Of a stretch of 64,000 nucleotides of DNA, positions 18,601 to 62,546 are shown in pieces. Origin of the DNA: Anolis carolinensis. Its lineage: Eukaryota. Below the pieces are notes generated by a model. The model was not told the DNA's origin. It worked only from the letters and a program-made list of their open reading frames with translations, and did not search any database. Made by a program: the position numbers and the translations under genes. The DNA lies in the NCBI RefSeq assembly GCF_035594765.1, contig NC_085846.1:13751190-13815189 (forward strand). Direction: 5' to 3'. Positions within the stretch are counted from its first letter, which is position 1. Each line of letters begins with the position of its first letter.

Positions 18601-20068
18601 TCTCTCAGAAACACACATACAAAATATCTGGTTTGTCCTATTACCAAAGAAATACAATGAAAATTAAGACAGTTTTCAAAAAAGGAGTCAATACACCACC
18701 CATGTTAGAGTCTGAAGCGAGTCACAATATAAAACCGGTTAACACCAATGGCAAAAAGGAGTATTGGTGCAAAACCTACTGTCCAGAAACTGCAAAGATA
18801 CAAAATGGGGGACACCTGGCTTGACAGCAGTACTTGTGAAAAAGACCTTGGAGTCCTCGTGAACAACAAGTTAAACATTAGCCTACAATGTGATGCGGCT
18901 GCTAAAAAAGCCAACGGGATTCTGGCCTGCATCAATAGGAGTATAGCAACTAGATCCAGGGAAGTCATGCTACCCCTCTATTCTGCCTTGGTCAGGCCAC
19001 ACCTGGAATACTGTGTCCAATTCTGGGCACCGCAGTTTAAGCGAGATGTTGACAAGCTAGAAAGCGCCCAGAGGAGGGCAACTAAAATGATCAAGGGTCT
19101 GGAGAACAAGCCCTATGAGGAGTGGCTTAAGAACTGGGCATGTTTAGCCTGCAGAAGAGAAGGCTGAGAGGAGACATGATAGCCATGTACAAATATGTGA
19201 GGGGAAGTCATAGGGAGGAGGGAGCAAGCTTGTTTTCTGCTGCCCTGCAGACTAGGACGCGGAACAACAGCTTCAAACTACAGGAAAGGAGATTCCACCT
19301 GAACATTAGGAAGAACTTCCTCACTGTGAGAGCTGTTCGGCAATGGAACTCTCTGCCCCAAACTGTGGTGGAGGCTCCTTCTTTGGAGGCTTTTAAGCAG
19401 AGGCTGGATGGCCATCTGTTGGGGGTGCTTTGAACGCGATTTCCTGCTACTTGGCAGGGGGTTGGACTGGATGGCCCTTGATGTCTCTTCCAACTCTACT
19501 ATTCTATGATTCTTTGCTCTTGTTCATGCAAAAGTCCTAAGAAAATCAGTTTCTTTGTAAAGGTTTACTTGTGTGTGGGAAAGTTAGGGACTGTTTGGAT
19601 GGTAGTTCTTTCAGTCATTATTCTGGCCAGGAGATTCTGGGAGCCAGAGTCGAAAAAAGTAACTTTCCTAATACCTAGACTTGGCTTCATCTTGGAGGAG
19701 CCTTGTGAAATGCTGAGTCCTTGACATGATGAATCCCTAGTGCTGAGTTGGCACTTGCTGAAAGAGCCAAAAGCAGTGCCAAAGACAAGCAGACCTTCCA
19801 GCCTACAGAAATGGAGCTGCATATTATCTACTATTGCTACACCACTTTCTCAGCCAACCGTGGTTCCAAAGCATCGTATGATTAAAATTCATCCTGAAAG
19901 AATTTCCTAAAGTGATGCACCAGGTTATCCAATTTGGACCAGTTGCTGGACTCTCAATCAATTTATGCAAAACAAAAATATTATCCACTAAATAACAAAG
20001 AAAAATAATAACTAAGATAAAAAACAGGAATTGAAACAACCCCCCAAACTAAATATTTAGGAATAAAC

Positions 20069-25721: not shown

Positions 25722-28624
25722 ATGATGTTATGAGTATTTCTGCTTACTCCAGCTTCTTCATCCTTAAGTCTTGCTAAGATTAGGCTGGCTTTATCCTATT
25801 TTGTGATAGGTGAGCACAGGGACAAACCGCTAGATCTATGAATAAGGCACTTAAAACAGCAAAGCTATGGAACCAGCAAAGAAAATATTAGAAATAATAA
25901 TTCTACATTGAAACTAGCTGACATACTATACAAGGCATAGGCAAACTTGGGCCCTCCAGGAGTTTTGGACTTCAACTCCACCATTCCTAACAGCCTCAGG
26001 CCCTTTCCTTTTCCCCCTCAGCCGCTTAAGCGGCTGAGGGGGAAAAGGAAGGGGCCTGAGGCTGTTAGGAATGGTGGGAGTTGAAGTCCAAAACACCTGG
26101 ATGGCCCAAATTTACCCATGCCTGTACTACACTATAGAACAATCTTCTCTTATTCCACCCCACTCAGGATGTATTGGACTTCAAGATTAGAAATATTAAG
26201 GCTACATTGAAACTAGCTGACAAATTATGCTATATAATAATCTTATGCTGTTATTCCACCCCATTCAGGATGTCTTGGACTTCAATTCCACTACATTTAG
26301 CTACTATGAGCCCACTGGCTTGGGTTGATGGAAATTTTAGTCCAACACATCTGGAGTAAAGTGGCAGATTGAGGAAAGGCTATTATGCAAGCAGCTGCAG
26401 CGAGGTCATGGAATTAACTTCTTTCACAGCAGCAGCAGCTGTACGTTGGTTTGACGAATGTTAAGATTGCCCATCATTCCTTCATAGGAATCAAGAAAGA
26501 CTTTTCAGTTTTATCAATAGAAAGAAAGGTGGGACAAGTGTTTGGGACCATGACTTGATGGAGTATGGAGGAAATAATGCCTCAATATGGCTGATGGGAA
26601 GGTCAATCCAACAACAGTTGAAGGGGGAAGAGCAGGGATTACCCTGCTTCTGGTGTATAATTTTAAAATGGGCTCTGGGAATTCAGAAACACTCACTTTT
26701 AGCACATTTTTGACTTCTTGGACCCACAGCTCCTGTGGAAAATCTGGGAGACAATGGACTCTACACCCTCTGGACGACTCTGGTTTGATTATCCTGATTC
26801 AAACAAAAAGAAGATCCTGGCCATTTATAAGTACATTGGAGAAGAGCCGGAATTTGTTGCCCCGAGTGAGATTCTCTTCCTGCCTCATAAAAGCCCATTG
26901 ATTTCCCTCAACTTGGGGAGGGAAAAAAGTCTTATGGGAGGGACTGGAGTTTAAAGGTAGAGTGCATGGTTTGTCTGTCGTCCCTCCTGAGTTCAAACTC
27001 TGCCATCTTCAGGTAAGGAAAATACCCTCCTTGAAACTCTTGCTGTTGAGCATGGCAGATGAGAGAGACTAAAGGCACAGGGTTATTGCAGTTTGATACC
27101 ACTTTAACTGCCATGGCTCAGTACTGTGGAATCAAGGGATCTGTAGTTTGGTGATGCAACAGCACTGTGTTGTCGCCGGAATCGCAGAGTTGTGTGTTTT
27201 CTGGACTGTATGGCCATGTTCCAGAAACATTGTCTCTTGACGTTTCACCCACATCTATGGCAGGCATCCTCAGAGATTGCCTGCCATAGATGTGGGCAAA
27301 ACGTCAGGAGACAATGCTTCTGGAACATGGCCATACAGCCTGGAAAACTCACAACAATCCTACAACTATTTGTCAGTGAAAGCTAAAGGCCTTGTAAAAC
27401 TACAGCTCAGTGGTACCAAACTACATTAAATCTACAGTGTAGATCACTGGTTCTCAACCTTTGGGTCCCCAGATGTTTGGGCCTTCATCTCCCAGAAATT
27501 CTAACAGCTGGTAAACTGGCTGGGATTTCTGGGAGTTGTAGGCCAAAACACCTGGGGACCCACAGGTTGAGAACCACTGGTGTAACTGCACTTTAAACTA
27601 AATGGACCCGTGGCCTGACTATAGGAGGCAACTTTTTTGCAGAGCTTTTAAGAACATTCCCCTTTCAGATAATATTTCAAGAGCTGTTTCAGTTCTTCTG
27701 AGCTTTTTTGCTCCAGTCTTTTTGGTGTCCTGTGTTTACAAGGGTCATGCTGTGGCAGGAAAGGAATCTATGAGATGGCTTTTCTTCTGCTCTTACAGGT
27801 AACTTCCCCAACCTGCTGCGTACTATCCTAGTAGGATCTGTCATCATTATCCTGGCCTTCTTCGTCTATCAGATCATCTCAAAAGTGTATGTGTCTTCTT
27901 GCCCCTTGCCCAATGCATTCCAATTCCCCCCCCCCCCTTCCTGTTCACTTTGGAAGGTAGTCAGTGACACAGTTTGTGTCTTATACCAGATTGAGAGGTC
28001 TGAAGGGAATTGGGGCCCTCTTTTAGAAGAAAGCAATGTATGCTCCTTCAAAAACAGTAAGCCAGACCTATGAGTTTGGCAGTCCTGTTTGTTCTGCTGT
28101 GTGAGGTTCCATCCCTGAATCAAACTCCTATCCTAAAGTCACTATTGTTGCGAGCTTTTATAGAACCATATATTCCCAGCATTGGAAGAGACCCCAAGGG
28201 CCATCCAGTTCAACCCCCTGCAATGCAGGAAAATACAATCACAGCACTCCTAATAGATGGACATCCAGCCTCTGCTTAAAAGTTTCCAGAGAAGGAGATT
28301 CAATTGGAGTCACAGGCAGCATATTCCAGAGGGATAAATTTCAAATTGTTTCTGACTCACGGTGATCTTACACAAAACTATGACTGGGTTTTATGGGGCT
28401 GGGAGTAAGGTGACTTGCCCAGGGTTACCAGGTGGCTTTTCATGGCCAAGTGGGGATTTAAACTCTGGTCTCCAGAGTTGTAGTCCAACGTTCAAATTAC
28501 TACACCACATGGCTCTTGGTGACATGGTAAGAGGTAATGATATATTCTCACCCTTGGAGTTTTTTTAAAAAAATCTTCTTCCTGGCTTTCTTTCAGGCTC
28601 TTTAAGAAGTCAAACACAGGTTAA
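25722..28624 (+). CDS. FIMP1: FIMP1/C16orf92 (fertilization influencing membrane protein) homologue; 5' part possibly disrupted
   Basis: Exon 26730-26865 (..WFDYPDSNKKKILAIYKYIGEEPEFVAP), exon 27799-27886 (SNFPNLLRTILVGSVIIILAFFVYQIISKV, TM) and exon 28597-28624 (LFKKSNTG*) splice in phase. They resemble human FFDYPDSDQARLLAVAQFIGEKP / LFHHILVGLLVVAFFFLLFQ / FQKGA as recalled. The gene is tail-to-tail with TLCD3B, as in mammals. Candidate signal-peptide exon 25722-25809 contains an in-frame TGA, so the start is uncertain. Confidence 0.75.
25932..26124. mobile_element. Palindromic hAT-type MITE
   Basis: Near-perfect ~190-bp inverted repeat centred on CAGCCGCTTAAGCGGCTG; 8-bp TSD TACTATAC/TACTACAC. 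Confidence 0.8.
27189..27356. mobile_element. Penelope-derived palindromic mini-element with hammerhead-like motif
   Basis: Inverted arms about 27189-27266 and 27278-27355 of Penelope pseudo-LTR sequence. Confidence 0.75.
27425..27579. mobile_element. hAT-type MITE
   Basis: TIR CA(C/G)TGGTTCTCAACCT ... AGGTTGAGAACCACTG; 8-bp TSD-like GTGTAGAT/GTGTAACT. Confidence 0.75.
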
Positions 28625-30086: not shown

Positions 30087-36362
<6,276 letters not shown>

Positions 36363-41789: not shown

Positions 41790-43272
41790 GACTGGTTAGA
41801 CTACCACCTCACCTGCTTCAAAGGACTATCACCGCACCCGCTTCATAGAAAATCTGCTACAAAACAGGAGCTTTTTTGTTTAGTTCCAGGACCAGAGAAG
41901 CTGATGACAAAAACAGAACAGCTTGCCCCAGGGGAATGTGCATGCTCTATCAGTGTTCAACATTTACACAAATTTATTTATTTATTTATTTATTATATCA
42001 TTTCTACCCCGCCCTTCTCACCCCTCAGGGGACTCAGGGCGGCTTACAACATGAACATATATATCAAAACAATTTATATCATGTTTAAAAATCCATTTAA
42101 ATTAAAAACTTACATTAAAATTGAGAGCTTACATTTAAAAACCTACATAGTTATACATATAAATATACAAATGATCAGCTACTGCCAGAAGGGACAGAGA
42201 GTTTCATCTATGCTGATGATGGCGCCATCACCACTCAAGCAGGGAGCTTTGAAATGGTTAAACAGAAGCTCTCTGAAGCTTTAGGTGCTCTTACTACCTA
42301 TTACAGGGAAAACCAGCTGATTCCTAATCCATCAAAAAACACAGATGTGTGCTTTTCACTTTAAGAACAGACAAGCATCCCATTGGAGCATTGCAAAACA
42401 GCAAAATACTTGGGAGTTATCCTGGACCGTGCTCTGACTTATAAGAAGCATTGCTTAAATATTAAGCAAAACGTGGTTGCTATAAATAACATCCCACGAA
42501 AGCTGACTGACACAACCTGGGGATCGCAACCAGATACACTGAAGACATCTGCCATTGTGCTTTGCTACTCTGCTGCTGAATATGCATGCCCAGTATGGAA
42601 TACATCTCATCATGTTAAAACAGTGGATGTGGCTCTAAATGAGACATGCCACATTATCACAGGTTGTCTATGCCCTACACCATTGTCTATGCCCTACACC
42701 ATATACTGTTTAGCCCAGGCATAGGCAAACTCCGGCTGTTAGGAATTGTGAGAGTTGTAGTCCAAAACACCTGGAGGGCTGGAGTTTGCCCATTCCTGGT
42801 CTAGCCGGTATTGCACCACTTGATATCCGTCAGGAAGCAGCAGCCTGTAATGAAAGGACCAAGACCCATCTTCTGTCTGGATATCAACCAGCACGCCAAT
42901 TTCTTAAATCAAGAAACAGCTTCCTAAGATCTACAGAGAAACCCACAGAAATGCCTAAGCAAGCAAGAGTCCAAAAGTGGCAGGCTAATACCCAAAACCT
43001 CAATCAGTGGCTGATGCCGGACCGTAAGAAATGGGGCCACAAAGTGGAGTCCACGACATGCGAGTGTGGAGAAGAGCAAACCACAGACCACTTACTACAA
43101 TGCACCCTGAGCCCTGCAACCTGCACAATGGAGGATCTTCTTAAAGCAACACTACAGGCACTTCAAGTGGCCAGCTTCTGGTCAAACAAAACTTAGTATA
43201 ATGCCAAGTTTTAAACTTTGTGTTTTTAAATACATGACAACTATACCCTCAATTCACTTCTGATACAATAAA
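41790..43272 (+). mobile_element. Vingi/Ingi-like LINE 3' fragment with nested insertions
   Basis: FIYADD RT motif near 42203; KYLGVILDRALTYKKH; WGSQPDTLKTSA..CYSAAEYACPVW; C-terminal CECGEEQTTDHLLQC. Interrupted by a LINE tail (about 41970-42160) and a MITE (42716-42798, TSD GTTTAGCC/GTCTAGCC). Confidence 0.8.
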
Positions 43273-43639
43273 CCAGCTGTTAGGAATTGTGGGAGTTAAA
43301 GTCCAAAACAGCTGGAGGGCCAAAGTTTGCCCATATAATGTAACAGGACAAGGTATTTCAGCTCATGGTATCTGCTAGAATTTGGTTGGAGGTCACAAAA
43401 TTGCAAGTCCCATTATATAGAATGGAGTAGTAAAATGATGTCCCTTACACACACATTTATGTGGATTTTTAGAAAATATTTGCAGCCAAATGAATTATAT
43501 TTCCCTTCAGCGTCTATATCTGACTCTCCTTCGGGTAATTTGAATAAATTTGCCTGTCCCCGCCCCTCCAACGGGCCAATTAGGCAGCTGTGAAAGAAAC
43601 CTCTTCCCTTTGTTTCGAAACCATTAACACAAGGTAAAC

Positions 43640-43830
43640 AATGAAACGCTCGCCTTGCCCTCCTGGTTTTTATCTGCGACCACAGCGCCCTCTAATGGTC
43701 ACGCTAGCCTGTCGCCATCCGGGCCGGAGTTTGGGGCTACCATAGCAACGGCGAATTACCCGCAGTGGCGCGGGAGACCGGCGGGCGCCTTTTGCGCATG
43801 CGCGGCAACCACTACAGCCTGCTTAGAACC
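43640..43830 (-). promoter_or_regulatory. CpG-rich distal promoter (likely TLCD3B alternative) with CTCF, RFX and NRF1 motifs
   Basis: CTCF-like CAGCGCCCTCTAATGGTCA 43683-43701; X-box GCTACCATAGCAAC 43736-43749; NRF1 TGCGCATGCGC 43793-43803; minus-strand donor GTAATT at 43759. Confidence 0.55.
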
Positions 43831-44259
43831 TTAGAGATAGGAAAGGGTAAGAGAAGGATTGTGGGAGATTTTCCTACTCAGAAATGGTTTTGCCATTTAC
43901 TCTCCTCGGAAATAATGTTGTGGTTGTGGGCCTTCAAGTCCTTGCTAACATAAGTGACCCTATCATGGGGTTTGCTTCGCAAGACTTCCTCCTCTGAGGC
44001 TGAGTGAGTGTGACTAGGCCCAAATCACCCACTGGGTTTCCAAATCTAGCCTAGTCTTTTCCCCACAACAATTCAATTGAATTGGATTGCAAGGCGCATC
44101 AACCTCAAGACAGCCAGCAAAGTCATTGTCCCTTAAGGTCTGGTGGTCATTATTATTGCTGCAGGTCAACAGACTGGAGCGAAAGCAACAGAGAGTTTGG
44201 GCCACCTTAAAAGACTACAGTTTTCCAAAATCAGTAGCTAAACTCATCAAATGCAAACT

Positions 44260-44620
44260 ACGTTGCTGTGAGTTTTCCGAGCTGTATGGCCATGTCCCAG
44301 AAGCATTATCTCCTGACGTTTTGCCCACGTCCATGGCAGGCATCCCCGGAGGTTGTGAGGTCTGCTGGAAACTAGACAAGTGGTGTTTATACATCTGTGG
44401 AATGTCCAGGGAATGACCAGGTTTATATATCTGTGGAATGTCTGAACAAAAAAAAACCCCGGGAATTCCAGACAGGAAACAAGCAGGGCCAGCTAACATC
44501 TCCCAACAAAGGATTCCCCCAGGCAGGAAGCAGCTAGGCTTTGAAGCTGCAAGGCCACTCAATGCTAATCAAGATGGCCAATTGCAACATTTACACTTGC
44601 CTCCAATAGACAAGAGTTCA
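44260..44620. mobile_element. Penelope-like inverted fragments
   Basis: Minus-orientation pseudo-LTR followed by a plus-orientation segment. Confidence 0.7.
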
Positions 44621-44759
44621 TTCTTGATGACTTTACTGATTCGCGTGACAAATTATTAACATAATATTTTAACGATTAATACAGTTCAGTTCCAAAACGC
44701 AACCCAAAAGTCATAGTCTACGTGTCAGTCTTCAAAGTTTTCTGCTCCATGGTCTCCTT

Positions 44760-45640
44760 TCCAAACGATGGGACGCATGCGCTGACTTGCAGACTTGTGA
44801 CCGCAATGGGTAAAGTACGCATGCGTGGATCAGGCGGACTTGACTCGTGTCACCCTTCACAACTCGGACTATGACTGGTTGGCGCAGTCTAGTTGCCAGG
44901 CAGATTTGTTACATTAATTGATTCCGATTTATTTCCGATTCAGGGGAGAAAGAAGGGGGAAAACTTATTCAGATCTACGGCCTAAAGAAAGGAGGCTTTC
45001 GCACTCAAGTAGAGTTAAGAGTGCCTTAATTCCTGTAGTCTATATTGGCTCATTCCTCCTCCCCCCCCCCCATATTATACAGATGGACCAGTCCAATCTC
45101 GTCTAGTGACGTTGTTTCCGATGTAAGCGCCGCATTTCCGGCGGAAATGGAGTGGAAGATTTGGGAATCCGAACGCATTGCGACGTCGAGGTAGTATAAG
45201 CGAGCGCTTCCGGTTGTACACCACCCGCCCTTTTTCTGTGCCCTAGCGTCATTTCCGTGAAGTGGCCTGAAGAATGTTGACTCCAACGTGAGCCCGTAGA
45301 AGCGAAGTAGTTTGCCTTCCTCCCCTCCCTCGCGATGTAATGGGCTGGTTTCCGAGGCAACCGCTGGCTTTGTTTACCTCAAGTTGAAAGCGGTGTCTAT
45401 ATGTTTCCTTCCCCTTGTTTTATTCTCCCAACACAGAAAGACCGAGAAAGAAAGGGAGCGGGCCGAGGAGACGGTAATCCGAGGCCTCTCCATGATATGA
45501 CGAGACATTCTGGAATATGATTAGATGCTTTTAATATTCAGAACGGAAGAGGAAAGCGGCCAGAAAGAGAGAGCGCAGATTCGCGCCTCTCATGAATATT
45601 CATAGCGACGTGCTGAATATTCATGAGAGGATCAATAGCA
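44760..45640 (+). promoter_or_regulatory. CpG-rich promoter of the Cys-rich microprotein gene
   Basis: CpG-dense. NRF1-like CGCATGCG near 44775 and 44818, ETS GCTTCCGG 45206-45213, candidate donor GTAATC at 45474. Confidence 0.6.
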
Positions 45641-45899: not shown

Positions 45900-46910
45900 T
45901 TGGGTTGCTGTGAGTTTTCCAGGCTGTATGGCCATGTACCAGAAGCATTCTCTCCTGACGTTTCGTCCCCATCTATGCAGATATTCTCAGAGATTGTGCT
46001 GTATATTGGAAACTTAGGCCAGTGAGGTTTATATATCTGTGGAAGGTCCAGGGTGGGTGAAAGAACTCTTGCCTGTTTGAGGTAATTGTGAATGTTGCAG
46101 TTAATTAACTTGATTAGCATTTAAAAGCCTTGCAGCTTCAAAGCCTGGTTGCTGCCTGCCTGGCGAAATCCTTTGTTGGGAGGTATTAGCTGGCCCTGAT
46201 TGTTTCTTGTCTTGAATCCGCCTGTTTTCAGAATGTTGTTCTTTATTTACTGTCCTGATTTTAGAGTTTTTTAAAAATACTGGTAACCAGATTTTGTTCA
46301 TTTTCATGGTTTCCTCCTTTCTGTTAAAATTGTCCACATGCTTGTGGATTTCAGTGGCTTCTCTGTGTCGTCTGACATAGTTGTTAGAATGGTCCAGCAT
46401 TTCTGTGTTTTCAAATAATATGCCGTGTCCAGGTTGGTTCATTTAGTGCTTTGATATGGGTGACTTCTCTGGTTGAATTAGTCTTCAGTGCCTTTCATGT
46501 TCTTTGATTCGTGTTTGGGTGATGCAGCATTTGCTGGTCCCTATGTAGACTTGTCCACAGCTACGTGGTATACGGTAGACTTCTACAGAGGTGAGGTGAT
46601 CCCTCTTGTCCTTTGCTGAATGTAGCATTTGTTGGGTTTTCTTAGTGGGTCTGTAGTTTGTAGGTTGTGTTTCTTCATCAGCTTCCCTATGCGGTCTGTG
46701 GTTCTCTTGATGTATGGTAAGAACACTTTTCCTCTGGGTGGATCTTTGTCTTTATGCTCATGATTTGTTCTTGGCCTTGCAGCTCTTTTGATGTCTGTGG
46801 TGGATGTCATTGGCCTGTAGAGTCCAGCTTGGGTGATTCAGTTCACCTTGGAGGAGGCAGGGTTCACAGATTGTTTTTGCAGTCTGCCAGGGCTTTAATT
46901 ATGCTTCTTT
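45900..46910 (-). mobile_element. Penelope-like element 3' part with GIY-YIG endonuclease
   Basis: Minus strand reads KVFLPYIK..DRIGKLMKKHNL, VYRIP.SCGQVYIGT and [22 protein letters not shown]; frameshifted. Confidence 0.88.
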
Positions 46911-47451
46911 TTTTTTAACTTAACTTTTCCCCAACCTAAAAAACGATACAATTACAAGACATACAAACCGTAAATATGGCAATCGAATTAGATTAGTTAG
47001 GCTTAGAGTCTGCGAGGAAGAACTAGCAGAGGGAAATACATTTGCTGTGTTGAAAATGAATACTAAACTTCAATAACAGCTGAAATATTCCCTGTTATTA
47101 AAGATCATAGAAGATTGAGGCACATGTTGACACGTTTAATATCTATGTATTTAAAGCGTTAACCAAAAAGTCTCGGAGCCTTGTTTTTTGGCCAGAGTAT
47201 GGTTGAGGGTGCTTTAACATCTTAGTAGAGTGTCCACACACGAAGAAAGTGTGTTAATAAGTAAATCAGAATTTTGTTTGTTTAATTTATCAGACAATTA
47301 TTATTTGGGACAGGTTGATGTGTTCACAGCAGGAAAAGGTAGAATTGTGGCCAGTGATTGTTTGAAATCATTTCTGTATTCCTCCAGGTTTTTTCTTTCG
47401 ACATCCATGGGTCCTCCGTGGGCTGAAGCCTTGTTCCTCCTTTACTAAGGA

Positions 47452-50400
47452 ATGGCAGTAAGTAGATTCAATTTAAAACAGTGAAGGGAGCATATTGCAA
47501 CAACTCTTCTTGATCTTTAAAAGACTTTGTGGGAGCACTATTGTCTATAGGGATGTGAACATGAGTAAGAAGGAGTGAGGCCTGGCTAAAATAGCCCTGG
47601 GGGGCTGTTATGTGGCCCCTGAGCCACAGCTTCTCTACCAGTAAAGTAGGACACTTTTTATTCCTTCAGAGACTCTCTGGAGACAAACTGACCCCAGTGC
47701 TCTTCTCACCAAGCTATAAGGAGTAAACTGGATTGATTACTTGTGATTCATGATATTTAAATACAGACAGTCCCCAAGTTACAAACATTTGATTTATAAA
47801 TGACTCATAGTAAGTAAGTAAAATTTTATTTATATACCGCTCTATCTCCTCGACGGGACTCAGAGTGGTTTCCAACAATAAATTAAAAACAATATACAGT
47901 ACATAGACAGCATAAAAACACATTATTAAACAGGATAAAACCAATTACAAGTAAAATAACAATAAGCAACAGTCACAACAATCTCATAGTTAAGAACAGT
48001 GGTGAGATGACAGGAAGTGAGAGAAATCTACCCATAGGAAGGAAAATTCACTCATGGAAGCGTTGTGTGGAAAGTGGGTCTCCACTGAAGCTTTATCACT
48101 AATCCTTGTTTCCACAATGACCCAAAATACTGAAAATCCAATTCATAACTTGGGGACTGCCTGTACATTAATATTGATAGTTGTGAACTCTCCTTCTTAT
48201 ATATTTGATTACTGTGAAGCATTGTCGATCAGGCATTTCATTTCATTAATCAGCAAGACTTGGGAAGTGATTAGGATCTGTGAAATTATGGGATCCACAT
48301 CTTTGAGGCACGTCATTTCATCTAGAAAGATTAACAGTATAAAAGAAATACAAAATAATTTAAGACCATATTTATAGTTTGGTAAAGTTGTCTTTTAAAA
48401 ATGGACATCTCCAGTATTTCCCTGCAACTATTATGCAGTAAAAAAAAAATCTGGCTACTGGGTGTCACTTGGCTGCCAGCTGAGTGAAGCCCCATATCTC
48501 TAAGAGAGCAAGTGCAGGTGAGTGAACTAATGATGCAACTATTATGTGAGGAATACTAAAATGCCAATTTGGGCACAAAAAATGGGGGTTTGACTATTGA
48601 GTTATGGCAACTATTATGCAATGACGTATGGTAATTGTTGTTTCCATGTAACATTAGAAACTGGATTTCAAAACTCATTCATGCAGTTCCTCTTATACCC
48701 TTTCCTGATACTCTTCACTCTGAAGTATCCCATTCCTCTTTGGCTTTGTTTGCCTTACAGACGCCATCGTTGAACCCTCCACCAGACCTCCCTTTTGCTG
48801 CCACCTTGTTCCTGCCCCTCCCTGCCATCATTTTCTTGGTTGTTGGCTCCTACCTACTACTCCTTGTCCTGGTTCTGGTCCTTCGTCAGTGTCTGCTGGT
48901 AACTAGGGGATCAAATGGAAAAAGCTGGGGAAGAAAGCATAGTATTTCAGAAACTGAAGATATATTTTTGGGACTGCAGCTCCCAGAACTCCCTAACCAT
49001 CCTTGGTGGCCGGCTGTGGGATTCTAGGAGATGTGCCAGTACTACAAGATAACACATCCAGGCTTAGGGGAATTTAGATGAGGAATGATTAATGAGGTTA
49101 GTTTTGATTCCCTTGGTATATTACAACATAGCAGTATGTTATGGTACTCTAGTGAGCAAGCACAATGGGTTGCTAAATTTAAATTGCCGATATTCAGGAC
49201 AGGGCCCCTTTTTGCAGAACTTGACAATAGTATATGACAGCCCCCAAAATATGTATGTAGAAGAAAACACATTGTCTCCTTCCAATTTTCTATTATCAGA
49301 TTGACTTTTCTTCAAATTGCATTAGCCAACATCCATTGTTGCTGACCTGGTAAATCTGGATTACCTGCAGCATGTAAATCCAAGAGATAAAGCATTGATG
49401 CTCAAATCATTAAGAGAGTGTTAAGATGCAGACGTTTTTCCTTTCAAATACCTGGTGAACCAAACTGGGTGTTCCGTTTCTTGTCTTTTCCCCAGGCTAG
49501 AGGTCTTTGTGCCAATTGCTGTTCCTGTGAAAAGCGGACTTGGCCAAACATGTGTGAATGTTGTATGGCTTGTGCAGAGACATGTAACTGTGTACTCCCC
49601 TCCCCAACCCGCTGTCTGGATCACTGCTGTTCCTGCACTAATGTGAGTCTTCTCCTTCTATGTGTCCCCACCTCGACCCCAAATAACTGACTAATTGTTT
49701 AGGAATATCAGTGGTCACAGCTTTTTCTAGGCCTTGCCATCATCAAAGGTGCAGTTAGTGAGGACACGGGAAAGGGCCTTTTTAGTGATTGCTACTGGAG
49801 TGTGACAAGAGGTTTGATTCACCTCCTTTCTGCTCTCTGCAGATTGAGAACTGTTTATGCAGGCAGGCCTTCAACTGATTTCAGCCATGTGGCAGAGAGG
49901 TGTGCAATTGTTTTTGTGTTGTTTGACCTAATCATGTTTTTAACTGCTTTTAATAGAATCTATGTTTAATGTTTTTAAAAGCTTTTGAAATCATACATTT
50001 TGGCTAAAAATTTTATTTAAATTTTGTAAGCTGACTTGGGTCCCTTGTCAGAAGACAATCAAGATATAAGCTGTAACAAAAGATAATACAACTATGTTAG
50101 ATTTAGCTTTGGAACAAGTTTTATTTTCCTTGTTGCTAAGAGTTACATACTTGATTATAGATCTTCACTATCTGAAAAGCAATTAGGTGGTATAGTAATG
50201 GTTGCTTCCAGGCTTCTTCCTTGGGAATAGATTCCCTACCCAATTTAATTCAGAAAGTGGCCTTGGGAAAAATCAGAGGTTGCAGATTTTCATGGCTATT
50301 TCTAGAGCTGCAGTGTAGCATTGAGTAACCAATTAAAATCTTTTTGCTGCACTTAAATTGTTTCCAATTAATGGTACTGCATATTTTTTAAAAGTTGTCT

Positions 50401-51789
50401 ATTTTATAACACAATGTAACAAAATTTGAAAAGTTCTGTCCTGGTTTGAAAGTGTTATTTCCTGTTCAATTGTGCGGTACCTACTTTGAAAGTAACTTTG
50501 TTTTTGTGTGTGAGGGTAGTACTGTTATTTCCTTCAGTGTAGTTACTTTGTTTGTAATTTTCCTTGATGAAAATATGCCATTTTTAACATTTGTGCAACC
50601 GCAAAAACAAAGTTTTTGCAGTGAAATAATTTCCCCCCCATATTTTATGCTAGAACCAATTAGGAAATGACATTTATAACAACAAAAAACATGTTACATA
50701 GTGTAATATAAGTGCAGGTAAACAATCGCTAGAGACCCAGGGCCCTCTACACAGCCATAAAACCCAGAATATCAAGACAGATAATCCCAAATTATCTATC
50801 TTTGAACTGGATTATCTGAGTCCACACTGCCATATATTCCATATGATTTCAAATGATAATGTGGGGTTTTATTGAGCTGTCTGGAAGGGCCCCAGCTTGG
50901 TTTAGTGGTTTGAGCATTTGGACCACAACTCTGGAGGCCAGAGTTTGATTCCCCTCTCAGCTGTTTTAAGAAGCAATGTCCTTCCTCAAAAGAAAATACA
51001 TTCCCTACAGTAAGTGCTTTTAAAATAAGCAAACGTAATCAACCCATTGATAGAACAATTGTATGGGTCTTAATTGATAAACTGAAGCTGCAATATTATA
51101 TGCAACTTTGCCAGGAAGGAGCTGGGCTGCAAAATGTCTTGAAATGGATGGCAGTCCTGGGACAGTAGAAAGTGACTGACTGAGAAATCAGAGTCAGGTT
51201 CTGGCCAGGAGAGCAGCTGGCCAAGCATGAAGAAAATGCATTAAAAAAACAGAGGAGAGCGAGCTTTCTTCAGAGCAGACAATGGGAACTGATTGCCCCC
51301 CCTCCTGGGAGGCTCAAATTCTTTTTGCATGAGGTAATGAAAGCCAGCATGTTGTGCAATAGCAATTATGAGGTCCAAGTGATCAGATAACAAGCCACCT
51401 GGGTCATTTCAAGCAAAGAGACTAAAAAATAAGCAGCGCTTATTGCTTAACAAAAAGGTTGAATCTAAAATCCTATCTTAATCAAAATAATCTACAGCAG
51501 GAAAAGAGGTGGAAGGAATCAAATTGTATTTAAAAGATTTATTGACCATATTTTAATTTTAATAGTCTTGCATTACTGAAATATCATTCCCAATTTTTCG
51601 AAGGTTGGGATATCGATACAGGTGGTACTGCAGGTTAACCAAGTATGATTTCTCTCTTGCTGCCAGGGCTGGGAGACAGGGACGTGCTCCATTCCCCGTC
51701 TGTGTCCTCTCTGTGATTGTGCCTGCACCTACCAGCCCCCAGACTGTCAGAACATCAACTGCATTTGTTTTGAGATCAAATTGCGTTAA
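47452..51789 (+). CDS. Cysteine-rich single-pass membrane microprotein (LOC112694756-like), 137 aa
   Basis: Exons 47452-47457 (MA), 48761-48898 (TPSLNPPPDLPFAATLFLPLPAIIFLVVGSYLLLLVLVLVLRQCLL), 49496-49642 (ARGLCANCCSC..CLDHCCSCTN) and 51667-51789 (GWETGTC..CPLCDCACTYQPPDCQNINCICFEIKLR*), all phase 0 with GT-AG. The C-terminal CFEIKLR and the position next to TLCD3B match human LOC112694756 as recalled. Confidence 0.88.
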
Positions 51790-52530
51790 GGTAGCCCATG
51801 TCTTTAATGAACAAAAATTTGACTGTGCCTCAGAGGCAGTATTTGTCCTGGGGAGGATCTCTTCATGCAAATGGTGACATTTAAAATGGGCATTTGCTCA
51901 AGTTGGCAAAGTTAACTATCCCAAAGCAAAAGGGAGATTTCTTTCTTCTGTTGATTTTTTACAGCTTTTATTTTTGTAATGTATTTGATATTTTTATAAT
52001 AATTGTTGCATTTTATAATAAAGCAAATTGTTTAGCCCCTGTGTCTGTCATTAATAGAGAAGTAAATGGAGGCCATTTGCAGCAGTGAGGTATTTCGTTG
52101 CTAAATTTTGGCAAAAGTTCAGGCATTCTCAGGCACTTTTCTTGGACAGCAAGATCAAAGTTGGATATTTGATGGGCTGAGGTGGATTGGAATAGTACCA
52201 TTGCTAGTACCTGCAATGTTTTTGAAAAAATATCATTCACCAGTCTTCCAGTGAATAAAGGCTTTCTTCCCTGGTCATGTACTGGAGCATTTTTTCACTG
52301 GCATAGGAGATCATGCTACCTGCTGCCTGAAAGTCTGATGTAAGTGATAACTAAAAGTATATGTGATAAGTGTTTAATACTATAAGTAAACACTATACTC
52401 CCCTGAAGAACTAGAAGCTAAAGCAGAAAATAATTTAGAATGTAATTGCCATGCTTATCTACACATTTTAAAGTTTAAATGAATCCCAGATATAACATTA
52501 CTACTTAGGAGAGGGGGGAAAGACATATCC

Positions 52531-56402: not shown

Positions 56403-57149
56403 GGACTGTAATCATTAGTTAAGCTGAGGGGGGAATGGAAGGGTCCTGAGGCTGTTAGGAAGGGTCCTCAGGCTCGCTCCCCAGGGAAATCAGGCAAGCC
56501 CCCACCCTGGTAGCATTCAGAAAGAGCTTGAAAACCTGGCTCTTTACTCAGGCCTTTAGTTAAAGATTGCTCACCCCCATAGCAATCTGTATCTGTGACC
56601 ATTCCTGTACCGGTTTACACTTTTACCTATGTCAGCTTGATAAAGACACAGGGTCTATTCCCATCCCAATTTGCACTTCCAAGAATTTGCAGCACTTTAT
56701 CAGTCACCTCGTGTTTACAATATTTATATGGTGCACCTTACCCAGTCTACTTTTACAGCCTCTCCATTTTAATCCATGTTTTTATTAGCTCTTGTCATTT
56801 GTTTTTACTGGCTAATGTTTAAATTTTTATAATTGTGCATGTTTTCTTGTCTATTGTTATGTTTTATATTGCTATTGTTTTTATTCGGGCTTGGCCCCAT
56901 GTAAGCCGCCCTGAGTCCCCTTTGGGGAGATAGAGGCGGGGTATAAAAATAAAGTTATTATTAAAGTTATTATTAGGAATGGTGGGAACTGGAGTCCAAA
57001 ACACCTGGAGGGCTGACGTTTGCCCATGCCTGGTCTCTATATATACACACACATATCTTTCAACAAATAGTTAGAATGACACCATTATACATCCCTTTAT
57101 TCTAAAGCCCCATTAAGCCCCTACTAATTTCTAGGGTGTGGATGGGGTG

Positions 57150-57580
57150 AAGAACGGGCGGAAAAAAGGAGAGCGGCTCCATCTTGGAAACGGGGAGCCA
57201 AAATGGCCGCCCCGCCTTCCCTCGGGCTTCAGGGCCGCCTTTGCCCGCTCCCAAGATGGCCGCCCTTCCTAGGGTGGGAGGGGGCGCGCCGCTTTCCCAT
57301 CAGCCCCGCCGTCGGGAGCGGGAGCTGCTGCTGCCTCTGCTGCCATCGGGACTGCGGGCAGGGATTGGAGGCGGAGGAGGGGAAGGGAAGGGAAGAGAAG
57401 GGGCTCCGGATGGGGAGGAGGGCGGTCCTTCTGGGCGGCAGGGGGCGGGGAGGGGCCTCCATTGTGGCTCGAAGGGGCTGCAATGCAGGGCGGGGGCCTT
57501 CCTTCCTTCCAGGGAACGCGTGAAGGATTGCGGGCTCACGGGGGCTTCTGAAGGCCTGGGCCTCTTGAGCGGTTAGCAGG
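57150..57580 (+). promoter_or_regulatory. CpG-island promoter and non-coding first exon of the Crk-family gene
   Basis: GC/CpG-rich. Two YY1 motifs: CAAAATGGCCGCC (57199-57211) and CAAGATGGCCGCC (57252-57264), plus GC boxes. An acceptor TTTTCAG at 58900 precedes the ATG exon. Confidence 0.7.
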
Positions 57581-58776
57581 CGGCAAGGCTGTCATTTGAG
57601 GGCGGTCGCTATTTGGGGCATCCGTTATTTGGGGGGCCTACAGCTTGGAGTGATCACAATTTTGTGGCCTCTACAACTTGAGGCTTTCATTCCTCAATCA
57701 GGGCGATTACAATTGGATGCCTTCATGGTTTCAGGGAATCGCAACGAGGTGCCCAAATTTGGGGCATTATTCATTCACCATTTGACGTGCCAACAATTGG
57801 AGTGATTACAATTTGAGGTGCTCTCAATTTAGGGTTACGTGTAGGGTGTGTGCATGTTATTGTATAGCATTGAGGCGCTCTCTCTCAATTTAGGGTTACT
57901 TCTAGGGTGTGTGTGTATTATTGTAAAGCATTGAGGCTGTATTATATATATTTTTTTGTGGGAAGGGTAGTTAATTTCATACCTATACAACAGGTTTTGG
58001 GGATATTCCGATTCAGCTTTGTGGAGGAAACCAGATTGAATTGTGGTGATGTAGATTTTTCCAGACTGAGAGTTTAGCAGATTTGTGTGATTTATTATTT
58101 TATTTTAGATTAAATCTTGAGTTTGGAATTTCCTGTGGGGGTGATTATAGCATCCAGATATCCTGCCCATTTTGTACAGCAACTCCATTTGGGGAGGAAA
58201 TAGTTATTTGTAACTATTATTAGTTATTATTATAATAGTTATTTGTAACTAAACCAACCTTTTAAACTACAGTAGCATCCTACAGTTTTGTAAGGTACTG
58301 CTAACTCTGTCGAGATATTGCAGGAATCTGGAGGTGCAATCATATATTACTTGGGGGGAGACCTTCTGTGGACTGTTTTACTCCCAAAATGCCCTTAAAG
58401 AGCATTGAGAAATGCTCTTTAATTTTGTAGGAACTGCCTGACACCAGAGAACCTAAAGGTCGCATGTGTGTTGCCTTGTGCACAGGGCCCTTATTTACCT
58501 GTATTGTTTATTAATTTTAGTAAAATCTCTTTGAACTTCTAGTAGAGTGCATTATTTTGGAAAGTAAGCTATAATTCCTGAAAACTATCGCCGTTGGGGG
58601 GGAATGTTATATATGGCACTCCATTTATGCGAAGGATTTCAGCGCAGAAGCTTTAATTTGCATTCCTAAGATACTTTTTTAATGGAAAAAGTGTATATAT
58701 ACTGCTGTTATTAGTAGGAGGGGAAGAATATTAGATTTGGATGATTTGAGGTGGAGCTACGTTTTTTTCACTGTGA

Positions 58777-62546
<3,770 letters not shown>

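Follow-up and report, generated by a model that had tools for sequence, protein, structure and literature searches.

In a 64,000-nucleotide stretch of Anolis carolinensis DNA (contig NC_085846.1, positions 13,751,190 to 13,815,189 of the forward strand; hereafter the window), positions 47452-51789 hold a gene for a cysteine-rich membrane protein of 137 amino acids (aa). Sequence comparison identifies this gene as the orthologue of human LOC112694756/ENSG00000285043. It is almost certainly a stand-alone gene whose family reaches sponges and a ctenophore, and a choanoflagellate protein very probably belongs to the same family. For its function, the explanation that we favour, and that we hold to be evenly balanced between right and wrong, is that the product is a single-pass, S-acylated accessory subunit of a membrane protein.

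Gene model and orthology

The coding sequence (CDS) comprises exons at 47452-47457, 48761-48898, 49496-49642 and 51667-51789 on the + strand (6+138+147+123 = 414 nucleotides, nt), and the introns are canonical GT-AG and in phase 0 throughout. Translation confirmed what the initial annotation had described, namely 137 aa with one transmembrane (TM) helix, 23 cysteines, 22 of them within the last 89 residues in CC, CxC and CxxC spacing, and a CICFEIKLR end. The single hydrophobic segment covers approximately residues 20-45, with a best 19-residue Kyte-Doolittle mean of 3.19. The translation is identical at 137/137 residues to RefSeq XP_062814032.1 (Anolis carolinensis LOC134292578); an annotation of the gene thus already exists, with the same 6-nt first coding exon. 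The first residues are also the same as in the RefSeq squamate models. The predicted splicing rests on the RefSeq model together with full-length orthologues.

The lizard protein is ~49-54% identical to mammalian members and resembles them over its full length, including the TM helix, the cysteine tail and the C-x-C-F-E-I-K-L-R end. The gene has four coding exons; the first of these comprises two codons in the lizard, whose introns are all in phase 0. Exon-skipped isoforms of mammals join in frame at the same points as the lizard exons. Counterparts of C16orf92 and TLCD3B lie on the 5' side, the former as a FIMP match just under the cut-off and the latter as a TLC-domain paralogue named by position. 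ALDOA lies directly downstream in human, mouse and zebrafish and does not do so in the lizard, which we regard as a trait of the neighbourhood and not of orthology. The closest known relatives are human LOC112694756, mouse ENSMUSG00000114515 and zebrafish ENSDARG00000097765 (si:ch211-198p11.6 in the teleost matches). Unlike human LOC112694756, the lizard gene has a Crk paralogue rather than ALDOA after it, and it has its own AATAAA.

In the sections of their article consulted, Mudge et al. 2019 (PMC6886504) describe a 139-aa human CDS with four coding exons, found by PhyloCSF in the ALDOA 5' untranslated region (UTR), apparently conserved in vertebrates and invariably co-transcribed with ALDOA. 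This co-transcription agrees with the statement in the initial annotation that the human counterpart shares transcripts with the ALDOA 5' region. According to the same sections, the zebrafish orthologue is a distinct polyadenylated locus beside aldoaa, and the human CDS is expressed in brain by RNA sequencing (RNA-seq), with promoter activity mainly in testis and cell lines (PMC6886504). In the parts of a study of bicistronic transcripts that we consulted (PMC13303939), the gene is named only in RNA-seq tables. Our literature search, with most subscription journals outside its coverage, found no functional study of the gene.

It was thus already known that the gene exists, that it codes for protein and that in zebrafish it is independent of ALDOA, and the inference of independence and coding selection is already in print (PhyloCSF and the zebrafish locus, in the sections of PMC6886504 consulted). 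The separation in the lizard is a stronger repeat of the zebrafish situation: the proposal that the gene is independent and under selection, and not an upstream open reading frame (uORF) of ALDOA, holds, with a Crk gene after the poly(A) signals and a family far older than the ALDOA link. The additions made here are the pre-vertebrate, probably pre-animal age of the family, a signature of topology and acylation, and the presence of a Crk gene in the place of ALDOA.

Depth of the family

A ten-sequence profile retrieved 92 proteins. The vertebrates among their sources are mammals, reptiles, amphibians, lungfish, coelacanth and both ray-finned and cartilaginous fishes; the invertebrates are a nemertean and an octocoral. 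At E<=0.001, exhaustive HMMER searching gave 144 representatives, and these homologues place the gene far beyond chance. Orthologues and coding-type conservation do exist, as shown by the full-length homologues and by the PhyloCSF signal described in PMC6886504 (sections consulted). Twenty of the 144 representatives were looked up, and the 16 that carried names were all from animals or a choanoflagellate. Named members come from a hemichordate, a priapulid, spiders, a horseshoe crab, a copepod and an amphipod, from Argonauta, Pinctada, Intoshia, Plectus, Trichinella and Fasciolopsis, and from the sponges Corticium and Halichondria, the ctenophore Mnemiopsis and the choanoflagellate Salpingoeca kvevrii.

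Because proteins with a TM helix and many cysteines can match through composition, we kept the TM helix of each protein, shuffled its tail 200 times and scored the products on a vertebrate-only hidden Markov model. All named non-vertebrate proteins (18/18) outscored all 200 of their tail shuffles (30.6-102.5 bits); they had been picked beforehand as matches, so composition is controlled and selection is not. Genomic read-through open reading frames (ORFs) lacking the cysteine tail told a similar story: 33/33 continue with Val at the lizard intron-2 position, the expectation for a phase-0 GT donor, and 3 of the 33 are nearest to the octocoral protein. Ten further ORFs, including spider- and fluke-like ones, fit Val at the intron-3 position, in a pattern that required Val. 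Intron positions thus appear to be shared across the family. On this sequence evidence the family extends outside vertebrates, a reach that the initial annotation had not noticed and that goes beyond the 'vertebrate' of PMC6886504 (sections consulted). Its age exceeds the published one by several hundred million years.

Some invertebrate members (P0075, P0078, P0081, P0182, P0186 and P0198) bear long Gln/Gly/Pro/Tyr-rich or Ser-rich extensions past the conserved C-terminal strand, which therefore need not be a free C-terminus.

Topology and chemistry of the cysteine tail

Lys and Arg are more numerous on the C-side of the helix in 66/69 aligned sequences, with 3 ties and none reversed, and the N-termini of the aligned members contain no cysteine in 1294 residues. 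We predict with high confidence a type III topology, in which the short, Cys-free N-terminus lies outside and the cysteine tail is cytosolic. Structural disulfides would then be unlikely. Consistent with a cytosolic tail lacking disulfides, tail cysteines number 13-43, with odd counts in 34 sequences and even counts in 35, and form no clean co-loss pairs. As in S-acylated single-pass accessory proteins, the tail predicted to face the cytosol carries juxtamembrane cysteines (C46 and C53).

Within the helix, mid-membrane position 33 always carries an aromatic residue (Y 85%, F/W 15%), and P21, A24, I25, L41 and R44 are conserved beside Y33. Together with the near-invariant N-C-x-C-F-E-I motif, these residues suggest specific contacts.

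In the 22 Cys-majority columns, 68% of replacements are L, I, V, M, F, W or Y, compared with a BLOSUM62 expectation of 44% and with 23% in the other tail columns. Aromatic residues make up 29% of the replacements against 9% expected, His 1% and Asp/Glu 0.4%. Among residues one base away from Cys codons, Phe/Trp/Tyr (29% of replacements) exceed Ser/Gly/Arg (15%). The pattern is weaker in vertebrates only, where 37/63 replacement types are bulky and none is His, Asp or Glu. Such replacements would be tolerable for acylated, membrane-facing cysteines and not for metal ligands, and the pattern favours multiple S-acylation. Both AlphaFold models place helices at 67-77 and 85-92, where column hydrophobicity peaks at 90-110 degrees. 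The initial annotation had suggested a palmitoylated or metal-binding protein; the alignment favours S-acylation for most cysteines and leaves metal binding only to a small C-terminal core.

Functional interpretation and alternatives

Under the accessory-subunit explanation, C46 and C53 would be S-acylated next to the membrane and, together with the cysteine faces of the two amphipathic helices, would probably lay the tail on the inner leaflet. The TM residues P21, A24, I25, Y33 and L41 and the C-terminal N-C-x-C-F-E-I strand could then dock on a partner, for instance a channel, a transporter or a lipid enzyme, whose traffic or gating they would tune in the way that lipidated MDFIC acts on PIEZO1; this step is plausible, although we lean slightly away from it. 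A few near-invariant cysteines of the C-terminal core might hold a zinc ion, which would be compatible with acylation. The sharing of mammalian transcripts with ALDOA would be an effect of neighbourhood and not of function.

Several points weigh against this explanation and the evidence behind it. The replacement test is uncalibrated against any acylated or zinc-binding family, 17/63 replacement types in vertebrates only are Ser/Gly/Arg, and buried core cysteines, or the bias of aligners towards pairing Cys with hydrophobics, could mimic the pattern. The helical-moment test counted Cys as hydrophobic by choice, and C93, C124, C129 and C131 are conserved at 93-98%, as suits metal ligands. N-terminal glycosylation sequons are not significantly enriched (12 seen, 9.4 expected), so that the topology depends on charge alone, and conservation of the TM helix has no clear one-face periodicity (best 140 degrees). 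AlphaFold2 is confident only for the N-terminal TM helix, with a predicted local distance difference test (pLDDT) score >90, and gives the tail ~40-55. The choanoflagellate protein is a single transcriptome record (E 4.7e-5) for which contamination is possible. Peptide support for the CDS is not listed in the sections of PMC6886504 consulted, and the literature found holds no acylation, localisation or binding data for the protein.

The main rival is metal binding by the C-terminal core. In its full form, which we consider unlikely, the protein would be a membrane-tethered metal buffer or sensor whose cysteine clusters bind Zn or Cu in the manner of metallothioneins or zinc fingers. The 22 cysteines in 89 residues, with their CC, CxC and CxxC spacing, speak for it, as do four to seven C-terminal Cys columns conserved at 92-98% and the low AlphaFold confidence, which is expected of a metal-folded tail. 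Against this, cysteines give way to bulky hydrophobics and almost never to His, Asp or Glu, their number and spacing vary threefold, no metallothionein or zinc-finger Pfam match at E<=10 was found in 38 diverse members, and the family shows no fixed Cys/His ligand pattern of that kind. Still less probable is a structural role in the membrane of sperm or cilia, with cysteines that become cross-linked during maturation as in SMCP or keratin-associated proteins. The nearby FIMP-like gene, automated names that include keratin-associated and sperm Cys-rich protein, and the occurrence of the family in flagellated lineages are in its favour. However, the family is retained in Plectus and Trichinella, nematodes that are not known to have flagellated sperm; the protein does not fit the keratin-associated/SMCP type, which has pentapeptide Cys-Pro repeats and no TM helix, since the TM helix is present and no such Pfam match was found; and a cross-linked matrix would not need the specific TM and C-terminal conservation. 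Brain expression, reported in the supplement of PMC6886504 as far as consulted, also argues against it.

We consider it very improbable that the protein is of type II, with an extracellular, disulfide-bonded cysteine domain acting as ligand or receptor. The high Cys content would fit, and there is a weak profile likeness to disulfide-rich PDB chains (E 4-8, within chance); yet the charge bias is positive-inside in 66/69 sequences, odd and even Cys counts are equal, and no paired Cys loss was seen. That the reading frame acts as a uORF regulating ALDOA (in the lizard, the Crk gene), with an irrelevant peptide, is hardly credible and already largely refuted. Human transcripts always continue into ALDOA (PMC6886504, sections consulted), and one lemur isoform bears the name ALDOA. 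However, residue-level conservation reaches sponges and the choanoflagellate, no ALDOA lies downstream within the window, where the gene has its own poly(A) signals, and the zebrafish locus is separate and polyadenylated (PMC6886504, sections consulted).

Human LOC112694756 falls within the recurrent 16p11.2 BP4-BP5 interval (table of PMC11354020, in the part consulted). With transcripts shared with ALDOA, expression and knockout studies could credit its effects to aldolase; in lizard and zebrafish the gene stands apart, which allows clean knockouts, and the signs of membrane placement are testable. A bolder proposal, to which we give little credence, is that a pre-animal family, spanning choanoflagellate to human and including the reduced orthonectid Intoshia, supplies an auxiliary subunit, acylated at multiple sites, to a core channel, transporter or lipid enzyme. 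Under this proposal its gene would also contribute to the 16p11.2 deletion/duplication syndrome through sensitivity to dosage, and would have been overlooked there because it is concealed within the mammalian ALDOA 5' region.

Relation to known families

The family is one without a Pfam entry, a solved relative or a confident fold. Pfam searches with single exons and with 10 and 38 diverse members gave nothing above the curated cut-off; a DUF6490 match (E 0.003) was below it. Beyond a match to sodium-channel beta-2 confined to the TM helix (E 0.007), PDB sequence profile searches yielded only Cys-rich matches attributable to chance. The ESM Atlas gave only unnamed clusters of the Cys-rich family plus influenza B NB at 0.75, which is a lead only. 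Two AlphaFold2 runs (33 and 123 sequences) reached mean pLDDT 56.4 and 57.6; Foldseek found 0 matches in the PDB with these models, which means little given the weak input, and the homodimer prediction score of 0.00 weighs neither for nor against.

MDFIC and MDFI (I-mfa) are lipidated auxiliary subunits of PIEZO1 (PMC12266723, part consulted). As a model of working only, MDFIC is alike in docking on a membrane protein through a Cys-rich amphipathic helix that bears several lipids; unlike MDFIC and MDFI, the lizard protein has a true N-terminal TM helix. Some snake orthologues are automatically named MyoD family inhibitor. A relationship to MDFI is unsupported, with 0/10 and 0/38 members matching the MDFI Pfam family, in searches whose HMMER filters drop most weak matches, and no MDFIC chain was found among PDB sequences at E<=10. 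Influenza B NB (PF04159) and the palmitoylated transmembrane adaptors LAT and PAG have a like architecture, with a short N-terminus, one TM helix and juxtamembrane cysteines. The best NB Pfam match, in 1/38 members, has E 0.87 and is not significant, and the tail shows no conserved Tyr signalling motifs (at position 119, 41/69 sequences have Cys). CYSTM/CYSPD proteins are small, widely conserved in eukaryotes and palmitoylated in a Cys-rich segment, and CYSPD proteins have 5-6 C-terminal cysteines and no real TM helix (PMC10840359, part consulted). Membership of that group, in which the C-terminal module is the only membrane anchor, is not indicated for the present family, which has a 25-residue TM helix (pLDDT >90), 13-43 tail cysteines and no Pfam match.

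Transcript features

The features predicted for the transcription unit are as follows.
43500..45500 (~43.5-44.0 and 45.0-45.5 kb), no strand: two CpG-rich stretches with presumed NRF1-, ETS- and CCAAT-type motifs
47388..47457, + strand: exon with the start codon (ATG 47452; two coding codons); 5' end placed by a pyrimidine-rich acceptor ending at 47387
47407..47448, + strand: 13-codon uORF with a strong start context; its stop is 3 nt upstream of the main ATG, which has a weaker context
48761..48898, + strand: coding exon 2, with the Pro-rich N-terminus and the TM helix with conserved P21, A24, I25, Y33 and L41, then R44 and C46
49496..49642, + strand: coding exon 3, with Cys clusters and the two predicted amphipathic helices (67-77, 85-92)
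51667..51789, + strand: coding exon 4 with stop, the most conserved block (C110-C131, N-C-x-C-F-E-I end)
52017..52022, + strand: AATAAA downstream of the stop, with a second at 52254; likely the gene's own 3' end, predicted from the motif

The CpG-rich stretches, 2-4 kb 5' of the ATG exon, are a candidate promoter with non-coding first exon(s). They may be alternative promoters, and one of them could face the TLC-domain gene. The 13-codon uORF is a candidate translational brake and may help account for the missing peptide evidence. In-frame isoforms of 85-88 aa that skip exon 3, leaving the TM helix and the C-terminal block, are annotated in other species (at least five mammals, the alligator, a turtle and a lizard), and an unnamed fish-like form resembles them. 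A 91-aa isoform that skips the TM exon is annotated in mouse, hamster and Equus. These isoforms are database models and may be artefacts, yet they are compatible with a modular tail.

Neighbouring genes

The gene order in the window is MVP (+), a FIMP/C16orf92-like exon (+), a TLC-domain gene (-), the Cys-rich gene (+) and a Crk-type gene (+). Three neighbours were delimited.
26703..26951, + strand: FIMP/C16orf92-like exon; Pfam FIMP E 8.5e-5, 23 bits, under the 25-bit cut-off
30090..36360, - strand: TLC-domain gene (TLCD3B/FAM57B by position); Pfam TRAM_LAG1_CLN8 in exon translations; head to head with the Cys-rich gene
57100..62546, coding 58981-62546, + strand: third Crk paralogue; SH2-SH3-SH3; own CpG-rich 5' end

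Mammalian FIMP/C16orf92 is a sperm fusion factor, which would make a copy in the lizard interesting. The identity of the TLC-domain paralogue as TLCD3B is suggested by synteny.

That no ALDOA follows the gene, as the initial annotation stated, proved correct within the window: a whole Crk-type gene follows the poly(A) signals, and the 353 stop-to-stop ORFs (125+99+129; at least 48-52 aa) between 22.1 and 64 kb gave no aldolase Pfam match, including none in the 99 ORFs of the downstream stretch at 51.6-64 kb. The same scans recovered the SH2, SH3, TLC and FIMP exons; 1-22 kb, mostly MVP, lay outside their range. ALDOA may sit just beyond the end of the 64-kb window.

The human order is C16orf92, TLCD3B, LOC112694756, ALDOA, and in human CDIPT to DOC2A separate MVP from the FIMP and TLC-domain genes (table of PMC11354020, in the part consulted). 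Comparison with this order indicates conservation on the 5' side but not on the 3' side, and the Crk gene occupies the position that ALDOA has in mammals. The lizard MVP adjoins the FIMP- and TLC-domain genes (window 6737-36360), and no Pfam match to CDIPT-to-DOC2A-type genes was found within 22-30 kb; the lizard version of the 16p11.2 block is thus rearranged at each of its two ends.

Frames resembling decayed reverse transcriptase or other mobile elements were seen by eye at 18733-19433, 42125-43196 and 46485-46837; those that were scanned had no Pfam match.

The third Crk paralogue encodes 251 aa, with a short linker that retains the P-Y-A-H-P motif. The claim that it has its own promoter is borne out at the level of sequence prediction by the CpG-rich stretch at ~57.1-57.6 kb, which carries the only two motifs of the window that we take to be of YY1 type. 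In an 18-row tree, from a search limited to proteins of 83-265 aa, the skink and tortoise copies form a clade (100/99) separate from CRK and CRKL; the third paralogue is possibly a genome-duplication copy that mammals did not retain.

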